Virus genome (UHGV): UHGV-0065555
DNA: 15,910 nt
DNA from: a virus
Strand: one strand, 5' to 3'
Under the pieces are notes generated by a model. The model ran no database searches. It saw only the letters and a list, made by a program, of their open reading frames with translations, and was not told the DNA's origin. A program made the translations under genes and the position numbers. Below are positions 1 to 14,688 of the stretch, in pieces (positions within the stretch are counted from its first letter, which is position 1; every line of letters begins with the position of its first letter).

Positions 1-2315
1 CAGGAACACGCGCGGATGGCGTCGCGTTCAGCATCGAGCAGGGTGCGGCGAACAATATCCTGCTGGCAAATGGCGGCGTGTTAACCGTGGAGTCAGACAC
101 CTCTTCTGACAAAACACAGGTCAATATGGGCGGACGGGAGATCGTCAAAACAAAAGCCACTGCGACAGGCACGACGCTCACCGGCGGTGAACAAATTGTC
201 GAGGGTGTGGCGAATGAGACAACAATTAACGACGGCGGAATACAAACAGTTTCAGCTAACGGAGAGGCAATAAAAACAAAGATCAATGAAGGCGGTACGC
301 TGACAGTCAACGATAATGGCAAAGCGACAGATATCGTCCAGAACAGCGGTGCCGCTCTCCAGACGAGCACGGCTAACGGTATTGAAATCAGCGGTACTCA
401 CCAGTACGGTACTTTTTCCATTTCCGGCAATTTAGCGACCAATATGTTGCTGGAAAATGGCGGTAATTTATTGGTATTAGCAGGTACCGAAGCTCGCGAC
501 TCCACGGTTGGCAAGGGTGGGGCAATGCAAAACCTGGGTCAGGACTCCGCCACAAAGGTTAACTCTGGCGGGCAATATACCCTTGGGCGGTCAAAAGATG
601 AGTTTCAGGCTCTGGCCCGGGCAGAAGATCTCCAGGTCGCTGGCGGTACGGCAATCGTCTACGCAGGTACGCTGGCGGATGCATCGGTCAGTGGCGCGAC
701 AGGAAGCCTGTCGTTAATGACGCCACGGGATAATGTTACGCCAGTTAAACTCGAAGGGGCGGTCCGGATTACCGATAGCGCGACATTGACTCTGGGAAAT
801 GGCGTCGATACCACGCTTGCCGACCTGACGGCTGCCAGCCGGGGCAGTGTCTGGCTTAACAGCAATAATTCCTGTGCAGGTACCAGCAACTGCGAATATA
901 GAGTAAACAGTTTGCTACTCAACGACGGTGATGTTTATTTGTCAGCACAAACAGCAGCGCCTGCCACAACTAACGGTATCTACAATACGCTGACAACCAA
1001 TGAACTTTCCGGTAGCGGTAATTTCTACCTGCATACCAACGTTGCAGGCTCCCGGGGCGATCAACTGGTCGTCAACAACAACGCCACTGGTAATTTTAAA
1101 ATCTTTGTTCAGGATACCGGCGTCAGCCCACAGTCTGACGACGCGATGACGCTGGTGAAAACAGGGGGAGGGGATGCTTCGTTTACGCTGGGCAATACCG
1201 GCGGTTTCGTTGATCTTGGGACCTATGAGTATGTCCTGAAAAGTGACGGCAACAGCAACTGGAACCTGACCAATGATGTAAAACCCAACCCGGACCCCAT
1301 CCCAAATCCAAAGCCAGACCCAAAACCCGATCCAAAGCCAGACCCAAATCCAAAACCAGACCCTACTCCCGATCCAACGCCGACACCCGTTCCGGAGAAA
1401 CGCATTACGCCTTCTACGGCAGCCGTACTCAATATGGCAGCAACATTACCGTTGGTATTTGATGCTGAGCTAAACAGTATTCGCGAGCGGTTGAACATAA
1501 TGAAAGCGAGTCCACACAACAATAATGTCTGGGGGGCGACGTATAACACCCGTAATAATGTCACCACCGATGCGGGTGCCGGGTTTGAGCAGACGCTGAC
1601 CGGAATGACAGTGGGGATCGACAGCCGTAATGATATTCCTGAAGGAATTACCACGCTAGGCGCTTTTATGGGCTATTCCCATTCACATATCGGTTTTGAT
1701 CGCGGAGGACATGGCAGTGTGGGCAGTTATTCTCTGGGCGGCTATGCCAGTTGGGAACATGAAAGTGGTTTCTATCTGGACGGTGTCGTGAAGCTGAACC
1801 GTTTTAAAAGTAACGTAGCAGGTAAAATGAGCAGCGGTGGAGCCGCCAATGGCAGTTACCACAGCAACGGGCTGGGCGGTCACATTGAAACCGGGATGCG
1901 ATTTACCGATGGTAACTGGAACCTGACGCCGTATGCATCGTTAACGGGGTTCACCGCTGATAACCCCGAATATCATTTATCCAATGGCATGAAATCGAAA
2001 TCAGTCGATACCCGCAGTATATATCGTGAACTGGGCGCAACGCTGAGTTACAACATGCGTCTGGGGAACGGTATGGAAGTTGAGCCGTGGCTGAAGGCGG
2101 CTGTGCGCAAAGAATTTGTCGATGATAACCGGGTGAAAGTGAATAGTGACGGTAATTTCGTCAATTATTTGTCGGGCAGACGTGGAATATACCAGGCAGG
2201 TATTAAAGCCTCATTCAGCAGTACGTTAAGCGGGCATCTTGGGGTGGGGTATAGCCATAGTGCCGGTGTGGAATCCCCGTGGAACGCGGTAGCTGGTGTG
2301 AACTGGTCGTTCTGA
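1..2315 (+). CDS. Type Va (AIDA-I/Ag43-like) autotransporter adhesin, 3' portion; 5' end lies outside the window
   Basis: Reading frame is open from the window edge (codons at 3,6,9...), so the GTG at 78 in the ORF track is not the true start. Passenger region is G/T/N/V-rich with recurring GG-x-x-V/T repeats typical of beta-helical passengers; Pro-rich linker PNPDPIPNPKPDPKPDP...; C-terminal beta-barrel segment ends ...AGVNWSF (aromatic terminal residue). Followed by a hairpin terminator. Confidence 0.85.
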   Translation, partial: GTRADGVAFSIEQGAANNILLANGGVLTVESDTSSDKTQVNMGGREIVKTKATATGTTLTGGEQIVEGVANETTINDGGIQTVSANGEAIKTKINEGGTLTVNDNGKATDIVQNSGAALQTSTANGIEISGTHQYGTFSISGNLATNMLLENGGNLLVLAGTEARDSTVGKGGAMQNLGQDSATKVNSGGQYTLGRSKDEFQALARAEDLQVAGGTAIVYAGTLADASVSGATGSLSLMTPRDNVTPVKLEGAVRITDSATLTLGNGVDTTLADLTAASRGSVWLNSNNSCAGTSNCEYRVNSLLLNDGDVYLSAQTAAPATTNGIYNTLTTNELSGSGNFYLHTNVAGSRGDQLVVNNNATGNFKIFVQDTGVSPQSDDAMTLVKTGGGDASFTLGNTGGFVDLGTYEYVLKSDGNSNWNLTNDVKPNPDPIPNPKPDPKPDPKPDPNPKPDPTPDPTPTPVPEKRITPSTAAVLNMAATLPLVFDAELNSIRERLNIMKASPHNNNVWGATYNTRNNVTTDAGAGFEQTLTGMTVGIDSRNDIPEGITTLGAFMGYSHSHIGFDRGGHGSVGSYSLGGYASWEHESGFYLDGVVKLNRFKSNVAGKMSSGGAANGSYHSNGLGGHIETGMRFTDGNWNLTPYASLTGFTADNPEYHLSNGMKSKSVDTRSIYRELGATLSYNMRLGNGMEVEPWLKAAVRKEFVDDNRVKVNSDGNFVNYLSGRRGIYQAGIKASFSSTLSGHLGVGYSHSAGVESPWNAVAGVNWSF
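1282..1395 (+). repeat. Short tandem codon repeats encoding a Pro-rich (P-D/N/K/T-P) linker inside the autotransporter
   Basis: DNA reads cc(a/c)(a/g)a(c/t)cc repeated; protein reads PNPDPIPNPKPDPKPDPKPDPNPKPDPTPDPTPTPVP. Confidence 0.6.
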
Positions 2316-2475: not shown

Positions 2476-2520
2476 TGGTGGAGCTGGCGGGAGTTGAACC
2501 CGCGTCCGAAATTCCTACAT
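2476..2520 (-). other. Prophage attachment-site core: 45-nt copy of the 3' end of tmRNA (ssrA), T-arm plus acceptor 3' strand
   Basis: TGGTGGAGCTGGCGGGAGTTGAACCCGCGTCCGAAATTCCTACAT is the reverse complement of the tmRNA 3' terminus as I recall it (...GGACGCGGGTTCAACTCCCGCCAGCTCCACCA). The match stops abruptly at 2520 and no full tmRNA body follows, so this is a partial att copy, not the gene. Confidence 0.7.
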
Positions 2521-2605
2521 ACCATTTTTACTATAATAAAAACATGTATTTATCTTTAAAATTAGTGTGTTAGTATTATTGTGTATTTGCTTGTTTTACC
2601 TATTT

Positions 2606-3667
2606 TTAATGCTCTGCCGCCAAAGTGCCGCCATCATCAACTGTCACCGGTTTCTCCATTACGTATGCTGACCATTCAGGAGAATAGAATGGTTGCAAAA
2701 ATTTAGAAAATTGTTCTGTATCAAATTTAATTTCACCAATGTACAAGTAGTTATATATATTACTGTAGTTTTGAAGCTGAAATCCGTAAGCTAGTTTTAA
2801 TATCTTTTTAGATAGATAAAATGCAGCCTCAAGTGATTCGGCTAACATTGATTCTGTGGGGGTGAACGTTCTTATTTTAGTGCCGTTGATTTTTAACTCT
2901 ATATAGGCTATTGAGATACAATCTACGCATAAAGTATCTAATAATTTAGCTATGTTATATGAAATTGTATTTAATCTGGTAAGGTGATCTTCTGCATTTG
3001 AATGGGGTGTAACCTTATCTTTTGATAAGTTATTATTAATGGTATCTAGGATTGACAATATACTTTTTTTAAAGTTCTCGTCTGGTGAATAATTGGATGT
3101 GATATCCATTGACGATTCTGTATATATATTGGAATATAATAAGTATGGGTTTGAGATTTTAATTTCATGAGTTGTTAGTATTTTAATTTTGTTGCTATCA
3201 TTGTAATTATAATATTTTGATGCGTCATCTACAAAGCTTTGCATCGTAAAGCTTGATATTTCTTTAATTTTATCTACGAAATTTTTCTCATGAGCAAAAT
3301 GTCTATCGATTGCATTTTTGATTTCAGATGAATTAATTTGTGCTTCGGTTTGTATCGTTCTGTGAATGTTATTTACTATGGAAGCTAATGGTACAGAACT
3401 TGCGAGTATCAATAATGGGAATTTGCTTATCTCATAGAATCTGGCATATCCGTGAGCAGAAAGAACAGGTATTTTACCAAACCATGCAAATGCTCCAAAA
3501 TAAATGAATGACAGCAGTGGTACTGCAATTGAAATCCAAAATAATTTCTGTTGAAATAAATTTCTTTTATCGAGAATGTACCACTTTTTATATATTGATA
3601 CAAACGCAAAAAGAATAATTGCCAAAATATACACAATAATTCCAGTAAAGCTAGTATTAATGTTCAT
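2606..3667 (-). CDS. AT-rich predicted membrane protein (moron) between int and att; function unknown
   Basis: 353 aa; two to three N-terminal hydrophobic helices (FTGIIVYILAIILFAFVSIY, LFWISIAVPLLSFIYFGAFAWF) then an N/K/I/Y-rich soluble region. Very AT-rich versus neighbours. Its ATG overlaps the int stop (ATGA on the minus strand). Confidence 0.55.
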   Translation of the reverse strand: MNINTSFTGIIVYILAIILFAFVSIYKKWYILDKRNLFQQKLFWISIAVPLLSFIYFGAFAWFGKIPVLSAHGYARFYEISKFPLLILASSVPLASIVNNIHRTIQTEAQINSSEIKNAIDRHFAHEKNFVDKIKEISSFTMQSFVDDASKYYNYNDSNKIKILTTHEIKISNPYLLYSNIYTESSMDITSNYSPDENFKKSILSILDTINNNLSKDKVTPHSNAEDHLTRLNTISYNIAKLLDTLCVDCISIAYIELKINGTKIRTFTPTESMLAESLEAAFYLSKKILKLAYGFQLQNYSNIYNYLYIGEIKFDTEQFSKFLQPFYSPEWSAYVMEKPVTVDDGGTLAAEH

Positions 3668-4686
3668 ATAATATTTAAATTAAATAGTGGGTTTTTAGTT
3701 ACTGCATCTTCAAGATGCTCTGGTGAAAAATGGGCATAAACCATAGTCATCTTAATATCTGAATGCCCTAAAATATCCCTCAAAACGAGTATGTTTCCGC
3801 CATTCATCATGAAGTGACTGGCGAATGTGTGGCGCAGTACATGGGTGCATTGGCCTTCTGGCAGCTCAATACCCGCGCGTTTAACCGCCCGCTCAAAGGC
3901 TTTTCTACATGGAGTGAATAGCTTCCCTCTGTTTTTGGGGAGTTCATCATACAGATCCTGAGATATCGGCACAGTACGGTTTTTCTTGCCTTTTGTTTTT
4001 GTATAAGTAATTCGGTATTTCGATATTTGATGGCCCTGCAGATTTTCGGCTTCACTCCACCGTGCGCCAGTAGCTAGGCATATTTTTGCAATCATTAGTA
4101 AGCTAGGGCTTTGAGATTCAGCACATGCTGCCAACAGGCGCTTGATTTCGTCCGTGGAAAGAAAAGCCAGCTCACCTTCGGCAATTTTGAAGGTCGGAAG
4201 TCCTGCCAGCGGGTTTGGTGCTGACCAGTGTCCTAGTTTTTTTAATGTACCGAACACAGATGATAGATTGCGCTGTTCAAGGTTTACCGTGCGGGGCTTA
4301 ACGGGCGACATAAGCGTGCCATCTTCATTTCGTATTTCACCTTTTAACCGTGCTTCGCGGTATTTTGTAAAGTCACCAGCTGTCAGTTCTGAGGCGATGG
4401 GATCGCCTAGACCATTACAGATAATTCTAAGTTTCGCCATGAGGCGCTTGGGGTCTGCGAGTGTTTGACCATACAGGGAATACCAAAGCTCAATTAATTC
4501 TGATAGGCGTCGCCGATCATCCTTTTCACCCAACCACGGTTTTTTATTCACTTCTTCCATTGTGAAGCTTTCAAACGCAATGGCTTCGCCTTTCGTGGCA
4601 AATTGCTTACGCACGCGCTTGCCATTGCGTCCATTGGGATAGCACTCACACAACCATTTTCCGTTCGGCTGTTTTCTGATGGTCAT
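3664..4686 (-). CDS. int: Tyrosine recombinase / integrase, P2 family
   Basis: 340 aa; N-terminus MTIRKQPNGKW...YPNGRNGKRVRKQF and C-terminal catalytic region ...ATGARWSEA...HVLRHTFASHFMMNGG...LGHSDIKMTMVYAHF closely resemble P2 Int as I recall it (R, H-x-x-R and Y motifs present). Confidence 0.9.
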   Translation of the reverse strand: MTIRKQPNGKWLCECYPNGRNGKRVRKQFATKGEAIAFESFTMEEVNKKPWLGEKDDRRRLSELIELWYSLYGQTLADPKRLMAKLRIICNGLGDPIASELTAGDFTKYREARLKGEIRNEDGTLMSPVKPRTVNLEQRNLSSVFGTLKKLGHWSAPNPLAGLPTFKIAEGELAFLSTDEIKRLLAACAESQSPSLLMIAKICLATGARWSEAENLQGHQISKYRITYTKTKGKKNRTVPISQDLYDELPKNRGKLFTPCRKAFERAVKRAGIELPEGQCTHVLRHTFASHFMMNGGNILVLRDILGHSDIKMTMVYAHFSPEHLEDAVTKNPLFNLNII

Positions 4687-4687
4687 A

Positions 4688-5320
4688 TCAAAGGCTCTTA
4701 ATGATTTTCAGTGCGCGGCCTACTACCTCAATGTCATCCAGACCGCACTCAAACGATGAATCATCCTGATGCACTACTAATTTGTTTCCCGGGAGTCGAG
4801 TCAATTTAACGATGCTTTTTATCCCGTCGATATCGACTAACCACATACCATTTACTGGTGGTGTTTGGTTGCGATCTATTAAATAAGAATCACCAGAAGT
4901 AGTCACCAGCAGTAGGTTGCTTGAGTCTGAGGGGAGTATGCTGCTATCAATGATTGCTTTTCCAGCATCGACCAATAAACCACCGTTGAGAGTCGCCTTG
5001 TCAATTTCAGGAGATACTAGTTCAGAAAGAGGTACAACCTTGCTGGAGTTCACGGAATTGATATTTTTTTTAGGTTCAATGTTTGGACCTGGCTCCCCCT
5101 GTCCGGTGGTTAGCCACAGTAAAGAAACTCCTGTTTCCAAGGCGCACTGAATCACCCACTCTGCAGGAAAACTATCTCTTAAGTATCTGTTTGCCATGGT
5201 GCTTTTTGATGCGCCTAAGTGATCGCAAAGTTGCTGTCTGGACTTGAAATCATAGGCTGCCATTAGTCTATGGATAGCCTCTCTTCCCCCTGTATTCTCT
5301 CCAACCTTTACCTGTATCAT
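4688..5320 (-). CDS. cI: CI-type immunity repressor (186-like), N-terminal HTH
   Basis: 210 aa, divergent from the Cox/Apl-like gene and adjacent to int as in 186. HTH-like segment SRQQLCDHLGASKSTMANRYL; AGGA RBS 7 nt upstream of the ATG at 5320. Identification rests on position and architecture, not on an alignment. Confidence 0.6.
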   Translation of the reverse strand: MIQVKVGENTGGREAIHRLMAAYDFKSRQQLCDHLGASKSTMANRYLRDSFPAEWVIQCALETGVSLLWLTTGQGEPGPNIEPKKNINSVNSSKVVPLSELVSPEIDKATLNGGLLVDAGKAIIDSSILPSDSSNLLLVTTSGDSYLIDRNQTPPVNGMWLVDIDGIKSIVKLTRLPGNKLVVHQDDSSFECGLDDIEVVGRALKIIKSL

Positions 5321-5337
5321 TTTTTAATCCTGTTGGC

Positions 5338-5384
5338 GTATCAAATATTGGATCGTAGTATCTCGATGTATCAAATATTGAATC
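5338..5384. promoter_or_regulatory. Operator-like direct repeats in the cI / apl divergent promoter region
   Basis: GTATCAAATATTGGATC at 5338-5354 and GTATCAAATATTGAATC at 5368-5384, 30 bp apart centre to centre, each with an AATATT palindromic core. Confidence 0.4.
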
Positions 5385-5439
5385 AAGTAAAACGAGATAA
5401 AACGACGTAAACCAAACCTTAATCGGGAGATACTGCACT

Positions 5440-7038: not shown

Positions 7039-7265
7039 TGGCTGATGCAATGGATCTCGTACAGCAGCGCGTTGAAGAAGAACGCCAGCGTCATATCCGT
7101 GCTGCCCGTGCCAAAACGCCGGGCGTGTCCCGCGTGCTTTGCATTGAGTGTGAAGCGCCAATTCCGCCAGCACGCCGCCGTGCCATTCCGGGTGTGCAGC
7201 TTTGCATTACCTGTCAGGAAATCGCAGAGCTGAAAGGCAAACATTACAACGGAGGTGCTGTATGA
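7038..7265 (+). CDS. TraR/DksA-family C4 zinc-finger protein
   Basis: 75 aa with CIECEAPIP...CITCQ (Cx2C...Cx2C) after a coiled-coil-like N-terminus; position matches the TraR-like ORF of P2/186 early operons. Confidence 0.7.
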   Translation: MADAMDLVQQRVEEERQRHIRAARAKTPGVSRVLCIECEAPIPPARRRAIPGVQLCITCQEIAELKGKHYNGGAV

Positions 7266-8119
7266 GCACCATCCTGAAATGGGCGGGAAATAAAACCGCC
7301 ATTATGTCCGAACTGAAAAAGCATCTTCCTGCTGGCCCGCGACTGGTTGAACCTTTCGCGGGTTCCTGTGCAGTGATGATGGAGACGGAGTACCCCAGCT
7401 ATCTTGTTGCGGATATTAATCCTGATTTAATCAACCTCTATAAAAAGGTTGCTGCTGATTGTGAATCGTTTATATCTCGCGCCAGAGTTTTATTTGAGAT
7501 CGCAAACAGGGAGGTGGCTTATTACAACATAAGGCAGGAGTTTAATTACTCAACTGAAATTACTGATTTCATGAAAGCGGTATATTTCCTGTATCTCAAT
7601 CGTCACGGTTACCGTGGTTTATGTCGCTATAACAAGAGCGGGCATTTCAACATTCCCTACGGTAATTATAAAAATCCGTATTTCCCTGAAAAAGAAATTC
7701 GCGCATTTGCAGAAAAAGCCCAGCGAGCAACGTTTATCTGCGCCAGCTTTGATGAAACGCTGGCGATGTTGAAGGCAGGGGATGTGGTGTATTGCGATCC
7801 GCCGTATGACGGTACGTTTTCCGGCTATCACACTGATGGTTTCACTGAAGATGACCAGTATCACCTGGCATCCGTTCTTGAACATCGGTCATCAGAAGGA
7901 CATCCGGTCATTGTTTCTAACAGTGACACATCCCTGATCCGTTCGCTGTATCGCAATTTTACTCACCACTATATCAAGGTAAAACGCAGCATCGGTGTGG
8001 CAGCTGGCGAGGGTAAATCAGCAACAGAAATCATTGCTGTTTCCGGGCCGCGCTGCTGGGTGGGATTTGATTATTCGCGTGGCCTGGATAGTTCTGCCGT
8101 GTACGGAGTACGTGCATGA
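7262..8119 (+). CDS. dam: DNA N6-adenine methyltransferase, Dam/D12 class
   Basis: Start [11 protein letters not shown] at 7262 (ATGA overlap with the upstream gene). SAM-binding motif EPFAGSCAV and catalytic DPPY motif ([10 protein letters not shown]). Confidence 0.85.
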
Positions 8120-11459: not shown

Positions 11460-12428
11460 TTATTTATAATATGCTGACTTCAAAACCACTCGTCTTTCAA
11501 CCTGCTGTGATAGCATTACCGCGTTAGTCCAATCTTTTGGATACCTTATTTCTTCTATAACACGAATATAAGCACATACTTTATTTTTTCCCTCTCCTTT
11601 GGCATAAGTAACCTCTAGATTATTAAATTTCAATAAGTGCTCTCTTCTTTGGTAAGTAAAACAGCCGTAATCACGGACATCAGAAGAAGTAATAGCATGA
11701 GTTGAAGGAAACCGAACTAGTAAATTTCTCAAGTAGGGAATAATGTCCAAACTCGTTGCTTTGTTTTCTTCTCTGCGACTCTTTCTGAACATATGTCTCC
11801 AACCCAGCCGTGTAAGCTCGATTTTCCCAAGCACCGGAGATGTGATTTCTTTCTGTTCAGAATAACGTTTTTTAACAAACGCTCGCCGATTATTAAGTAG
11901 TGAGTTTCTTCTTCTTACATGGATTCCTTTTGCTCCAGTTTCACCTGCACGTACCATGGACATACAGCGAGCCAGGTCAAACCGTGTGGCCGGAGTGATT
12001 AAGTGATATTCTCCATAAGTTTGGTTTTTAAGGGTAGTGTTTGGATGTATATAGGCCCAAAATGCTTTACGATTAGTTCTGTCAACCCAAACGACACATA
12101 TATGGTGAGTTGTCCTTTTGGCTGCTTTTTTTGCGGCCGAATTTAATACAAAACCTTTCTCTAATAAATGACCATAAGTTGCCCCTGATTTAACTTGCGA
12201 TAATATAAGCATTCTTTCTTTTGATGCCCATGGATGTTCGAAGGATAATATTAAATCTATTTTTGAATTGTCGTCTTCCCTGGAACCCCAGTGCCCCTCT
12301 CCTCTACAAGCAAGAATGAATTGACTCATTGCATAAGATTCGGCGTCACTGCCGTTAACTGAGTTAAACTGTCTTGTTTCTAGCACAGTTGGTATTGGTC
12401 GTGATGCAAGTAAACTGAAAGATCCCAC
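11460..12428 (-). CDS. AT-rich cargo protein of unknown function, possible PD-(D/E)xK-like nuclease fold
   Basis: 322 aa; GTG start at 12428 with a GGAGAG RBS 8 nt upstream (first in-frame ATG would be at about 12329). Strongly AT-rich relative to phage core genes. N-terminal segment KIDLILSFEHPW...LILSQVK could be a degenerate D...(E/Q)xK motif, which is speculative. Basic C-terminal region. Confidence 0.55.
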   Translation of the reverse strand: MGSFSLLASRPIPTVLETRQFNSVNGSDAESYAMSQFILACRGEGHWGSREDDNSKIDLILSFEHPWASKERMLILSQVKSGATYGHLLEKGFVLNSAAKKAAKRTTHHICVVWVDRTNRKAFWAYIHPNTTLKNQTYGEYHLITPATRFDLARCMSMVRAGETGAKGIHVRRRNSLLNNRRAFVKKRYSEQKEITSPVLGKIELTRLGWRHMFRKSRREENKATSLDIIPYLRNLLVRFPSTHAITSSDVRDYGCFTYQRREHLLKFNNLEVTYAKGEGKNKVCAYIRVIEEIRYPKDWTNAVMLSQQVERRVVLKSAYYK

Positions 12429-13036: not shown

Positions 13037-13951
13037 ATGCCATACCAATTGGTAGAGCTTAGCCCCGTAGCTAACGATCTTGAACAGTTAGGAACCAAAG
13101 AGAAGTTTTGGTTCTATTTCTCCGATGACACTGTAAATTTGCAGTTGTTTAAGTACTCTAGGCCAGGTACTGGCGAGCATTGGTCTGAAAAGTGTGCTGC
13201 TGAGTTATGTCATTTGCTTAACATTCCACATGCTAGCTATGATTTGGCGCGATACAATGGTCGATTCGGTGTGGTGACTCAGAATATCATTCCATCTGGT
13301 TTCCGGATGGTAATGGGAAATGAAGTGCTTCACAGTTCGACATTCGATTATCCTGGGCCTTTACAAGCCGGGGAAAAGCCGGTAAGGGTCAGAGAACACA
13401 CTGTCACAAGGGTATTGGGTTGTTTGGATAGGGAATCTATCAAGCCTCCTCCGAGTGTATATGATCTAACCGGGCTAAATGCAGCAGATGTATTTTGTGG
13501 ATATTTGATGCTCGATGCACTTGTGAGTAATCAAGATCGCCATCATGAAAATTGGGCGATCATGCTTAACAATGAAACTGGTGAGCAGTTTTTGTGTCCA
13601 ACATACGATCATGCCGCTAGTTTAGGAAGGGAGATGTTAGATGATGAGCGTAACGAACGGCTTAATACTAAAGATAAAAATCGACAAATCCCATGTTTTG
13701 TAAGAAAAGCTCGCTCTGAGCTATTCAAAGCAAAAACTGATAAAAAGCCCTTGCTGACCGTTGAAGCATTTCAACATGCAGTTGAAGGGAGAGTTGCCGC
13801 TCGCGACCATTGGTTAGGTAAGTTGAGCGTTTTAACAGAAGATTCCATTACAGATGTGTTTAACCAAGTGCCTTCATCGTGTATATCCGACAGTGCACGT
13901 AGATTTGCAACGTTAATGGTAATGGAAAATCGCAGAAGGTTACTAGAATGA
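13037..13951 (+). CDS. HipA-family Ser/Thr kinase, core kinase domain only (HipT-like)
   Basis: 304 aa. Gly-rich/ATP loop LGTKEKF (HipA ..AGAQEK..); catalytic loop LVSNQDRHHENWAIM (HipA ..GATDGHAKNFSV..); Mg-binding CPTYD (HipA ..TPFYD..). Lacks the HipA N-subdomain. AGGGA RBS. Confidence 0.8.
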   Translation: MPYQLVELSPVANDLEQLGTKEKFWFYFSDDTVNLQLFKYSRPGTGEHWSEKCAAELCHLLNIPHASYDLARYNGRFGVVTQNIIPSGFRMVMGNEVLHSSTFDYPGPLQAGEKPVRVREHTVTRVLGCLDRESIKPPPSVYDLTGLNAADVFCGYLMLDALVSNQDRHHENWAIMLNNETGEQFLCPTYDHAASLGREMLDDERNERLNTKDKNRQIPCFVRKARSELFKAKTDKKPLLTVEAFQHAVEGRVAARDHWLGKLSVLTEDSITDVFNQVPSSCISDSARRFATLMVMENRRRLLE

Positions 13952-14688
13952 CTAATACAAACTCCGTTTACGTCGCATGGCAGGCACCAGATACCAGAGA
14001 CTGGCATGTTGTTGGTAACTTGCAAGAGCGCAAATCGGGGTATGTTTTCAGGTATACCAAAGGTGCTCTTAAATCTACTAAATTTACAAAGTTTAGCGGC
14101 ATGAGTGATGTTCGTGAAACTTATGTTTCGGAAGAATTGTTTCCTCTTTTTAAAAATCGCCTTTTATCACCGAGACGTCCAGAGTATCCGAGTTTCATTA
14201 AATGGCTTGGATTTGAAGAAGATAAGGTAAATCCTATCGATATTCTTGCTCGCTCGGGAGGCTTACGAAGCACTGATCAGCTGCAGATTTTCAAAAAAAT
14301 TGATGTTGATTCTGATGGTAACTTTGAGCATTTTTTCTTCTTACATGGACTTGGTTACTTAAATAGCTTAGCTAATGCTCGTGTATCTGAATTGAAACCG
14401 GGGCAAATTTTGCGTCTTTGCTTGGATCTTCAAAATGAATACGATGGGGATGCTGTTGTCGTTCGTGCAGATAAACCAGCTGAAATCGTTGGTTACTGCC
14501 CTAGGTATTTAAGTAATGATATCAAGAAGATGTTATTGGATGATCCAAAATCAATCACTTTAACGGTCGAAAAGATTAGCGATGATGCTCCTCATAACTA
14601 TCGGTTATTATGTAAATTATCAGGAGTACTAAGCCAAGCCTGTCAATCGACGCTGATTCCTCAGGATGAGTTTGAACCTATTGAGTAA
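13948..14688 (+). CDS. HipA N-subdomain-like (HipS-like) protein fused to a C-terminal HIRAN domain
   Basis: 246 aa; ATG overlaps the kinase stop (ATGA). N-terminal part aligns by eye to HipA residues about 10-100 (VGNLQERKSGYVFRY vs VGELTKLANGAHTFKY; LFPLFKNRLLSPRRPE vs FNFFDNLLPDSP; DILARSGG vs DLLSEIGRD). C-terminal part GQILRLCLDLQNEYDGDAVVVRADKPAEIVGYCPRYLSNDIKKMLL fits the HIRAN consensus. Confidence 0.7.
   Translation: MTNTNSVYVAWQAPDTRDWHVVGNLQERKSGYVFRYTKGALKSTKFTKFSGMSDVRETYVSEELFPLFKNRLLSPRRPEYPSFIKWLGFEEDKVNPIDILARSGGLRSTDQLQIFKKIDVDSDGNFEHFFFLHGLGYLNSLANARVSELKPGQILRLCLDLQNEYDGDAVVVRADKPAEIVGYCPRYLSNDIKKMLLDDPKSITLTVEKISDDAPHNYRLLCKLSGVLSQACQSTLIPQDEFEPIE

Follow-up and report, generated by a model that had tools for sequence, protein, structure and literature searches.

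P2 prophages carry old, tin and Z/fun, which are AT-rich anti-phage morons that are expressed in the lysogen and occupy fixed slots. Lambda RexB and mycobacteriophage Sbash gp31 are the membrane effectors of prophage abortive-infection (Abi) systems expressed together with the repressor, in which a polytopic inner-membrane effector depolarises the cell once a cytoplasmic sensor has been triggered. PdpSau from a prophage of S. aureus and lactococcal AbiP are membrane-anchored single-protein abortive-infection proteins, and PdpSau is known to alter membrane potential and permeability on infection (PMC10127798). In P2-like phages, the slot between the integrase gene (int) and the attachment site (att) was reported to be a minor hotspot with 3% of their defence systems (Moura de Sousa et al. 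2026, PMC13586616); a 2024 preprint counts it as the third hotspot (Egorov et al., bioRxiv 10.1101/2024.10.15.618418).

Here, a gene in this slot was analysed in a DNA stretch of 15,910 nucleotides (virus genome UHGV-0065555), referred to as the window. The window is composed of E. coli-type chromosome and a P2-like prophage of the 186 type that is integrated at ssrA (Table 1). Beyond cI come, on the opposite strand, an ORF in the apl/cox position, cII, dam and gpA; a variable block and the portal gene follow. The int-att hotspot is already published, and the gene family described below is not.

Table 1. Features of the window around the cargo gene and their positions
Feature	Position	Strand	Remarks
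ypjA, 3' part (autotransporter gene)	78-2315	+	chromosomal, before the prophage
att core	2476-2520	-	displaced 3' end of ssrA (tmRNA), 45-bp exact copy
Cargo ORF, 353 aa, ATG start	2606..3667	-	member of phrog_17460
Last 9 codons and stop of the ORF (GGTLAAEH, stop)	2606..2634	-	phage flank common to all sister prophages, with any cargo
Two direct repeats, GGCGGCA-N4-GGCGGCA	2615..2632	-	predicted 186-type Int arm-type sites of attP
Swappable cargo cassette, 1,050 bp	2635..3684	-	about 30% GC; from junction alignments
Codons 136-343, hypervariable alpha/beta C-terminal domain	2639..3262	-	confident model
Codons 99-128, juxtamembrane helix	3284..3373	-	near-invariant polar residues
Codons 8-98, three hydrophobic helices (8-26, 42-63, 83-98)	3374..3646	-	predicted N-out, C-in bundle of three transmembrane (TM) helices
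ATGA overlap of int stop and ORF start	3664..3667	-	4 nt
186-type tyrosine integrase (int), 340 aa	3664..4686	-	Pfam Int_N and Phage_integrase
186-type CI repressor (cI)	4688..5320	-	stop 1 nt from the int start
Promoter-like site just upstream of cI	5344-5316	-	sequence prediction

The gene and its place in the prophage

The ORF is a real, functional gene. The chance of 353 stop-free codons at its base composition is 5e-13, with a stop expected every 13 codons, and the longest stop-free run in 2000 shuffles reached 140 codons. A public assembly collection has the identical protein in 110 of its blocks. A sequence-only reading of the window had described an ORF of this length with N-terminal TM helices, far more AT-rich than int and with an ATG that overlaps the int stop. 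All of this holds, as three hydrophobic segments follow the ATG, the GC content is 0.31 (GC3 0.27) vs 0.45 for int and 0.46 for the whole window, and the overlap is an ATGA.

The gene follows int as int follows cI, with spacings of +1 nt (cI to int) and -4 nt (int to the gene) on one strand, so that the three form one gene string. The minus strand of this string has no predicted terminator, and between int and the gene nothing above shuffle expectation was found as an internal promoter or terminator. Since the gene overlaps int and the 25 nt upstream of its ATG hold no Shine-Dalgarno-like sequence, its translation is probably coupled to that of int. The 4-nt overlap also exists in relatives from K. 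aerogenes, C. freundii and E. coli; it is not a family-wide property, as loci L001, L016 and L019 show gaps of 4-38 nt. In 186, int is read by transcription in the leftward, lysogenic direction, and a lacZ fusion to int is used as a reporter of it (PMC7708051). The tight packing, the lack of a predicted terminator and the existence of relatives between cI and int make it a fair inference that the gene is expressed in lysogens, at a low level and coupled to int.

The slot was surveyed with a cargo-deleted query in 5,426 complete E. coli genomes, 132 of which were found to carry this prophage type at ssrA, with flanks up to 97% identical. Occupants were counted from annotations and sequence matches in the best 60 of the 132 records: GapS1 in about 13, relatives of the gene studied here in 11, an anti-phage dCTP deaminase in eight, an HNH nuclease in four and other uncharacterised genes in about 10, while 14 slots were empty. 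Only 19 complete E. coli genomes carry a DNA relative of the gene, and these match its 5' half only. The slot varies in isolated phages as well: Cartapus has a RES protein at this junction, RE2010 and SopEPhi have unnamed ORFs, and SEN8 and MLG42 are empty; only two phage records contain a member of the family, at 27-47% identity. Genes of the int-att junction are thus carried in packaged phage genomes and are not chromosomal remnants only.

The gene lies between int and the core, inside the prophage, and it is swapped among near-identical flanks (87-97% identity) in the manner of int-att hotspot cargo. Sister prophages with flanks 96-97% identical have either no cargo or an unrelated one, so the gene is not a conserved core component, and the proposal that it is an accessory moron is upheld, including by the empty junctions that the earlier reading had suggested looking for (the 14 of the best 60 of 132 records, SEN8 and MLG42).

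The same prophage possesses a candidate two-gene defence system, PDC-M03, in the gpA-portal hotspot (13037-13951 and 13948-14688, both on the plus strand), which consists of a HipA-like kinase and a HIRAN-domain protein (PADLOC E = 2e-122 and 3e-93, respectively). The same hotspot has another uncharacterised cargo gene, an ORF of 322 aa (11460-12428, minus strand) that found no match in Pfam, PADLOC or NCBIfam. Directly past the displaced ssrA core, related loci (L006, L007, L016-L019, L035, L037, L038) often have another integrase, unrelated to the first, which comes with an island of retron, Lamassu-like and kinase genes. More than one element thus integrates at ssrA, and defence islands stand next to the prophage in tandem.

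Cassette borders, Int arm sites and tandem cassettes

On the left side (alignment A3), homology between the prophages extends through the int codons ...EDAVTKNPL and then breaks; past ...KNPL, the last three or more int codons and the stop vary with each cargo. On the right side (alignment A2), ATGGCGGCACTTTGGCGGCAGAGCATTAAAAA is common to all prophages aligned, whatever their cargo. The empty junction of L012 has this shared element directly after the int stop (...CAT CGC TAA TAA ATGGCGGCAC...). The break on the int side and the shared element on the att side, the empty junction included, delimit the insert given as the cassette in Table 1, which contains the cargo-specific last six int codons and stop, followed by the gene up to the arm sites. 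The int C-terminus had been suspected to be altered by insertion because it differs from the P2 ending; that the end changes with the cargo is correct, while a comparison with the P2 Int ending is not relevant to an integrase of the 186 type.

The right border coincides with a repeat pair, TGCCGCCAaagTGCCGCCAt, of which 0.08 are expected by chance. The reverse complement of the repeats, TGCCGCCA, fits tgccGCCActt, the published consensus of the 186-type Int arm-binding repeats (PMC3448106). A second pair, GGCGGCAaaatGGCGACA, has the same orientation and lies 50 bp past the core on the ogr side in the sister prophage L014. The 3' end of the ORF is, as predicted from these repeats, the Int arm-type binding sites of attP, which would explain its GC-normal composition (52% GC in the last 42 nt). 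The sequence-only reading had given about 15 GC-normal final codons and had considered the 3' end a possible read-through artefact of insertion. The composition stands, and the ORF does read into the flank, but the flank-derived part comprises the last 9-10 codons and the stop, and it is not the accident of a single insertion. At the int-att site, the ORFs of most family members cross the repeats in one common frame, and some continue for a further 12 codons, which makes the read-through an old property of the family at this site.

The last nine codons are kept as DNA and not as protein, according to three results. Synonymous divergence (pS) from L001 and L025 is 0.13 in the last codons vs about 0.75 or more (saturated) elsewhere; residues 346-353 are disordered in the model, with a pLDDT below 50; and the GapS1, HNH and deaminase genes end before the shared element or sit on the other strand.

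Two further observations concern the arm repeats. A copy with two mismatches, GGCGGCGTGCTGGCGGAA, lies at the traR/dam junction (7162-7179 of the window, minus strand), where most related loci have it too; it may be an additional Int site, or the coding sequence may resemble the repeats by chance. An Rfam tmRNA match from the core to the arm sites (2476-2620, minus strand), which links the 3' end of ssrA to the arm-site region as if the latter were the 5' acceptor strand, scored 29 bits vs a gathering score of 47 and is probably an artefact; CCGCCA is present in both the arm repeat and the core.

The arm pair is doubled in K. aerogenes (L004, 7096-8520) and in some E. coli and Citrobacter prophages; L021 and L029 are among the loci with this doubling. 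The order in these tandem loci is the first arm pair, a remnant of the int 3' end, GATGCTGTCACGAAAAATCCGTTA (...DAVTKNPL), a second cargo, the second arm pair and the core. As the second cargo is enclosed by an int remnant and an arm pair, cassettes move with both borders and can stack. The second cargo gene encodes 397 aa (L004, 7184-8377) with a RES-like motif, RYS..G.P.LYLG..E...YRS. This likeness was noted by eye, as the protein found no Pfam match at E <= 0.01, and may be compared with the protein annotated as RES at the same junction in Cartapus. A possible paralogy of this protein with the family studied here was rejected (hhalign probability 0.3%). Between ssrA and ogr, L014 has an ORF of 160 aa with a weak BRCT match (7597-8079), which suggests that both sides of attP may hold cargo. 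In L028 (E. coli EC96, 3300-5428), the family member is split into two ORFs, with IS5 between the member and int, an example of cargo decay.

The cassette borders, the ORF that runs through the predicted Int arm sites and the tandem cassettes, all read from sequence, are absent from the accessible parts of the published hotspot accounts. The borders show how cargo can be swapped at the int-attP junction without harm to int or attP. They also provide a mining rule for other 186-type prophages, in which cargo would be everything between the ...KNPL of int and the first arm repeat.

Protein family and predicted architecture

Among the resources searched, PHROGs is the only one that knows the family. 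Residues 11-308 of the protein match positions 8-306 of the 343 in the profile phrog_17460 (E = 9.3e-47), which is annotated as 'unknown function'. A first search found 81 relatives, all named 'hypothetical'. A profile search of 1.84 billion cluster representatives (clusters at 50% identity) revealed 898 family clusters at E <= 1e-3, of which 459 pass E <= 1e-10; almost all of the proteins have 300-400 aa. The clusters come from Escherichia, Klebsiella, Citrobacter, Enterobacter, Salmonella, Serratia, Proteus, Pectobacterium, Dickeya and at least one Pseudomonas. The protein itself had no match at E <= 0.1 in PADLOC 2.0, NCBIfam 20 or Pfam, and no Pfam match was consistent among 53 aligned family members; the RexB, SieB, SLATT and CAAX-Abi models of Pfam were unmatched by the protein at this threshold and did not recur in the 53 members. 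No fusion of a member to a known domain emerged from a search with a 131-sequence profile; all matches are 'hypothetical' and free of Pfam domains, and one of them is mis-named 'sugar ABC transporter permease'. Nothing usable came from a search of PDB sequences with the family profile, and a literature search by accessions and PHROG identifier found no paper on the family. The conserved helix was also inspected for a HEPN-like Rx4-6H motif. This idea was rejected, since no correctly spaced His follows R103 and the Arg is missing from the pair K117...H126.

Relatives with 25-67% identity occupy the same place between int and att in Klebsiella, Citrobacter, Kosakonia, Erwinia and E. coli. In Serratia and Dickeya, the relatives lie between cI and int; in Providencia, in the classic gpA-ogr/portal defence hotspot; in Proteus, next to lambdoid tail-fibre genes; and in Pseudomonas chlororaphis, at the edge of a P2-like tail cluster. 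Defence systems, and accessory genes that prophages express in the lysogen, are usually found at such locations.

The protein is predicted to consist of a small membrane module, a juxtamembrane helix and a C-terminal domain (Table 1). Residues 37-128 are near-invariant across 201 sequences, with L37, Q40, F43, P50, W62, G73, F77, P84 and L88 conserved together with a polar set at 102-128. In the juxtamembrane helix, the near-invariant residues are N100, H102, R103, T104, Q106, T107, Q110, K117, N118, D121, H126 and K128. Eleven of the 13 conserved positions of residues 100-128 fall within a 160-degree arc of one long helix and may thus form a conserved interface or lining. In the same 201 sequences, most columns of the C-terminal domain (about 210 residues) exceed 3 bits of entropy. 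The non-synonymous divergence of this domain is 0.57-0.70 vs 0.20-0.24 in the N-terminal part, which is 2-3 times higher. The dN/dS values are 0.13-0.53, below 1 wherever they can be estimated, and by this measure the gene is under purifying selection.

The AlphaFold (AF2) model of the full-length protein has a pLDDT of 84, and that of the C-terminal domain alone has a pLDDT of 87.5 and a pTM of 0.88. Fold searches returned no informative relative, and BFVD returned nothing. Regarding topology, the first loop and the stretch after TM3 have a net positive charge and the second loop is neutral; the favoured model places the N-terminus outside and the C-terminal domain in the cytoplasm. The N-terminal TM helices described in the sequence-only reading are thus predicted, three in number. 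The third is marginal, with 16 residues and a marginal insertion energy, and for this reason the topology is given as a prediction. If this segment did not span the membrane, the variable domain would be periplasmic and a block of entry would be favoured.

Possible functions and comparison with known systems

The favoured reading is that the gene encodes an anti-phage module of the single-protein abortive-infection type, as swappable cargo of the int-attP hotspot. We give it a probability of roughly 0.4. Judged from genomic context and architecture, an anti-phage function of some kind is somewhat better supported and is the side on which we would come down. The pattern of a conserved effector and a variable sensor points to a single-chain inner-membrane sensor-effector. 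Under the favoured reading, the leftward lysogenic promoter would drive the gene together with cI and int, and translation of the gene would be low and coupled to int through the ATGA overlap. The product would be an inner-membrane protein with three TM helices, N-terminus out and C-terminus in, in which the near-invariant polar helix lies just under the membrane and is followed by the hypervariable cytoplasmic domain of about 210 residues. This domain would recognise a component of the infecting phage, and the conserved membrane part, probably as an oligomer, would then disturb membrane integrity or potential and the infection would be stopped, in analogy to PdpSau and AbiP or to RexAB-type systems. 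Against this reading, the protein is not homologous to a known family of defence, exclusion or toxin proteins and has no informative fold match, and guilt by association with the hotspot is imperfect, as non-defence cargo is also present.

A wider proposal, which as a whole is put forward tentatively, is that the family might be a new, widespread class of single-chain membrane anti-phage sensor-effectors with a previously unseen fold. Its members would combine an invariant pore or scaffold of three TM helices with a polar stalk helix (H102, R103, Q106, D121 and others), and exchangeable sensor domains in the cytoplasm would gate this module. The gene would travel as a self-contained, stackable cassette that extends from the int 3' end to the Int arm sites, and the family would be an ancestral resident of the 186-type lysogeny operon across Enterobacterales.

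The main rival is superinfection exclusion, which is considered unlikely. It holds that the inner-membrane protein blocks the entry of the incoming genome without killing, on the model of P22 SieA and T4 Imm, and that the variable domain decides which phages are excluded. Most exclusion proteins are smaller than the present one, with its 353 aa and large folded soluble domain, which counts against this idea, and to our knowledge a large variable soluble domain is no known feature of inner-membrane exclusion proteins. Both the charges and the model, which fits small bundles of membrane helices, speak for a C-terminal domain in the cytoplasm, and neither SieB nor another Pfam model was matched at E <= 0.1. 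The marginal third segment allows a periplasmic variable domain, as exclusion would prefer, and the protein is prophage-encoded, located in the inner membrane by prediction and probably expressed in the lysogen. SieA provides the precedent of a single inner-membrane exclusion protein (PMC10883804).

It is rather improbable that the gene serves lysogenic conversion or fitness (for example in the envelope, in stress or as protection from a membrane-acting toxin) in a permissive slot and has no defence role. Hotspots do hold mixed cargo, and the sequence of the gene indicates no specific anti-phage activity; yet all named occupants of the slot, in the best 60 of the 132 E. coli records, are anti-phage genes or nucleases, and the Providencia relative is in the canonical P2 defence hotspot. 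A hypervariable domain beside an invariant membrane core is, moreover, typical of an arms race. A role of the phage's own, in integration, excision or the control of lysogeny, is very improbable: the coupling to int by the ATGA and an ORF that spans both arm-type repeats would suit it, but many complete sister prophages and isolated phages do without the gene, relatives in Providencia and Proteus lie far from att, and a membrane location is hard to square with recombination. A chance ORF or decaying remnant, for which AT-rich foreign DNA and a disordered tail encoded by a cis-acting site could be cited, is already refuted by the comparative data (P = 5e-13, 898 family clusters, dN/dS below 1, confident AF2 models and an identical protein in 110 assembly blocks).

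If the family is anti-phage, a common unnamed defence gene with 898 clusters would be added to the catalogue, and a compact one-protein model would be available of a membrane effector coupled to exchangeable sensor domains. Membrane proteins that prophages express in the lysogen and that interfere with other phages are known as a general kind. The gene is a good candidate for defence screens and will not surprise specialists, and the hotspot itself is not the discovery.

Compared with the cargo of the int-att hotspot in P2-like prophages, the gene shares both the position and the rapid swapping among near-identical prophages; the known defence genes GapS1 and dCTP deaminase are alternative occupants, whereas this gene matches no known defence model. 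The old, tin and Z/fun genes of P2 encode other proteins in other slots, and these are soluble. P22 SieA resembles the protein as a prophage-expressed inner-membrane protein that is sufficient alone (PMC10883804); no similarity to SieA-type exclusion proteins was detected, and these block entry, unlike the abortive infection favoured here. RexB and Sbash gp31 belong to two-protein systems with a separate sensor, whereas the present protein would be sensor and effector in one chain. PdpSau and AbiP are alike in being prophage accessory genes with an N-terminal membrane anchor and a cytoplasmic C-terminal domain, the latter predicted here, although no relation in sequence or fold to the present protein was found. 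PdpSau combines a single helix with an OB-fold-like region, and its gene neighbours the lysis genes, whereas the protein of this locus has three predicted helices, an invariant polar stalk helix and an alpha/beta domain, and its gene belongs to the lysogeny operon.
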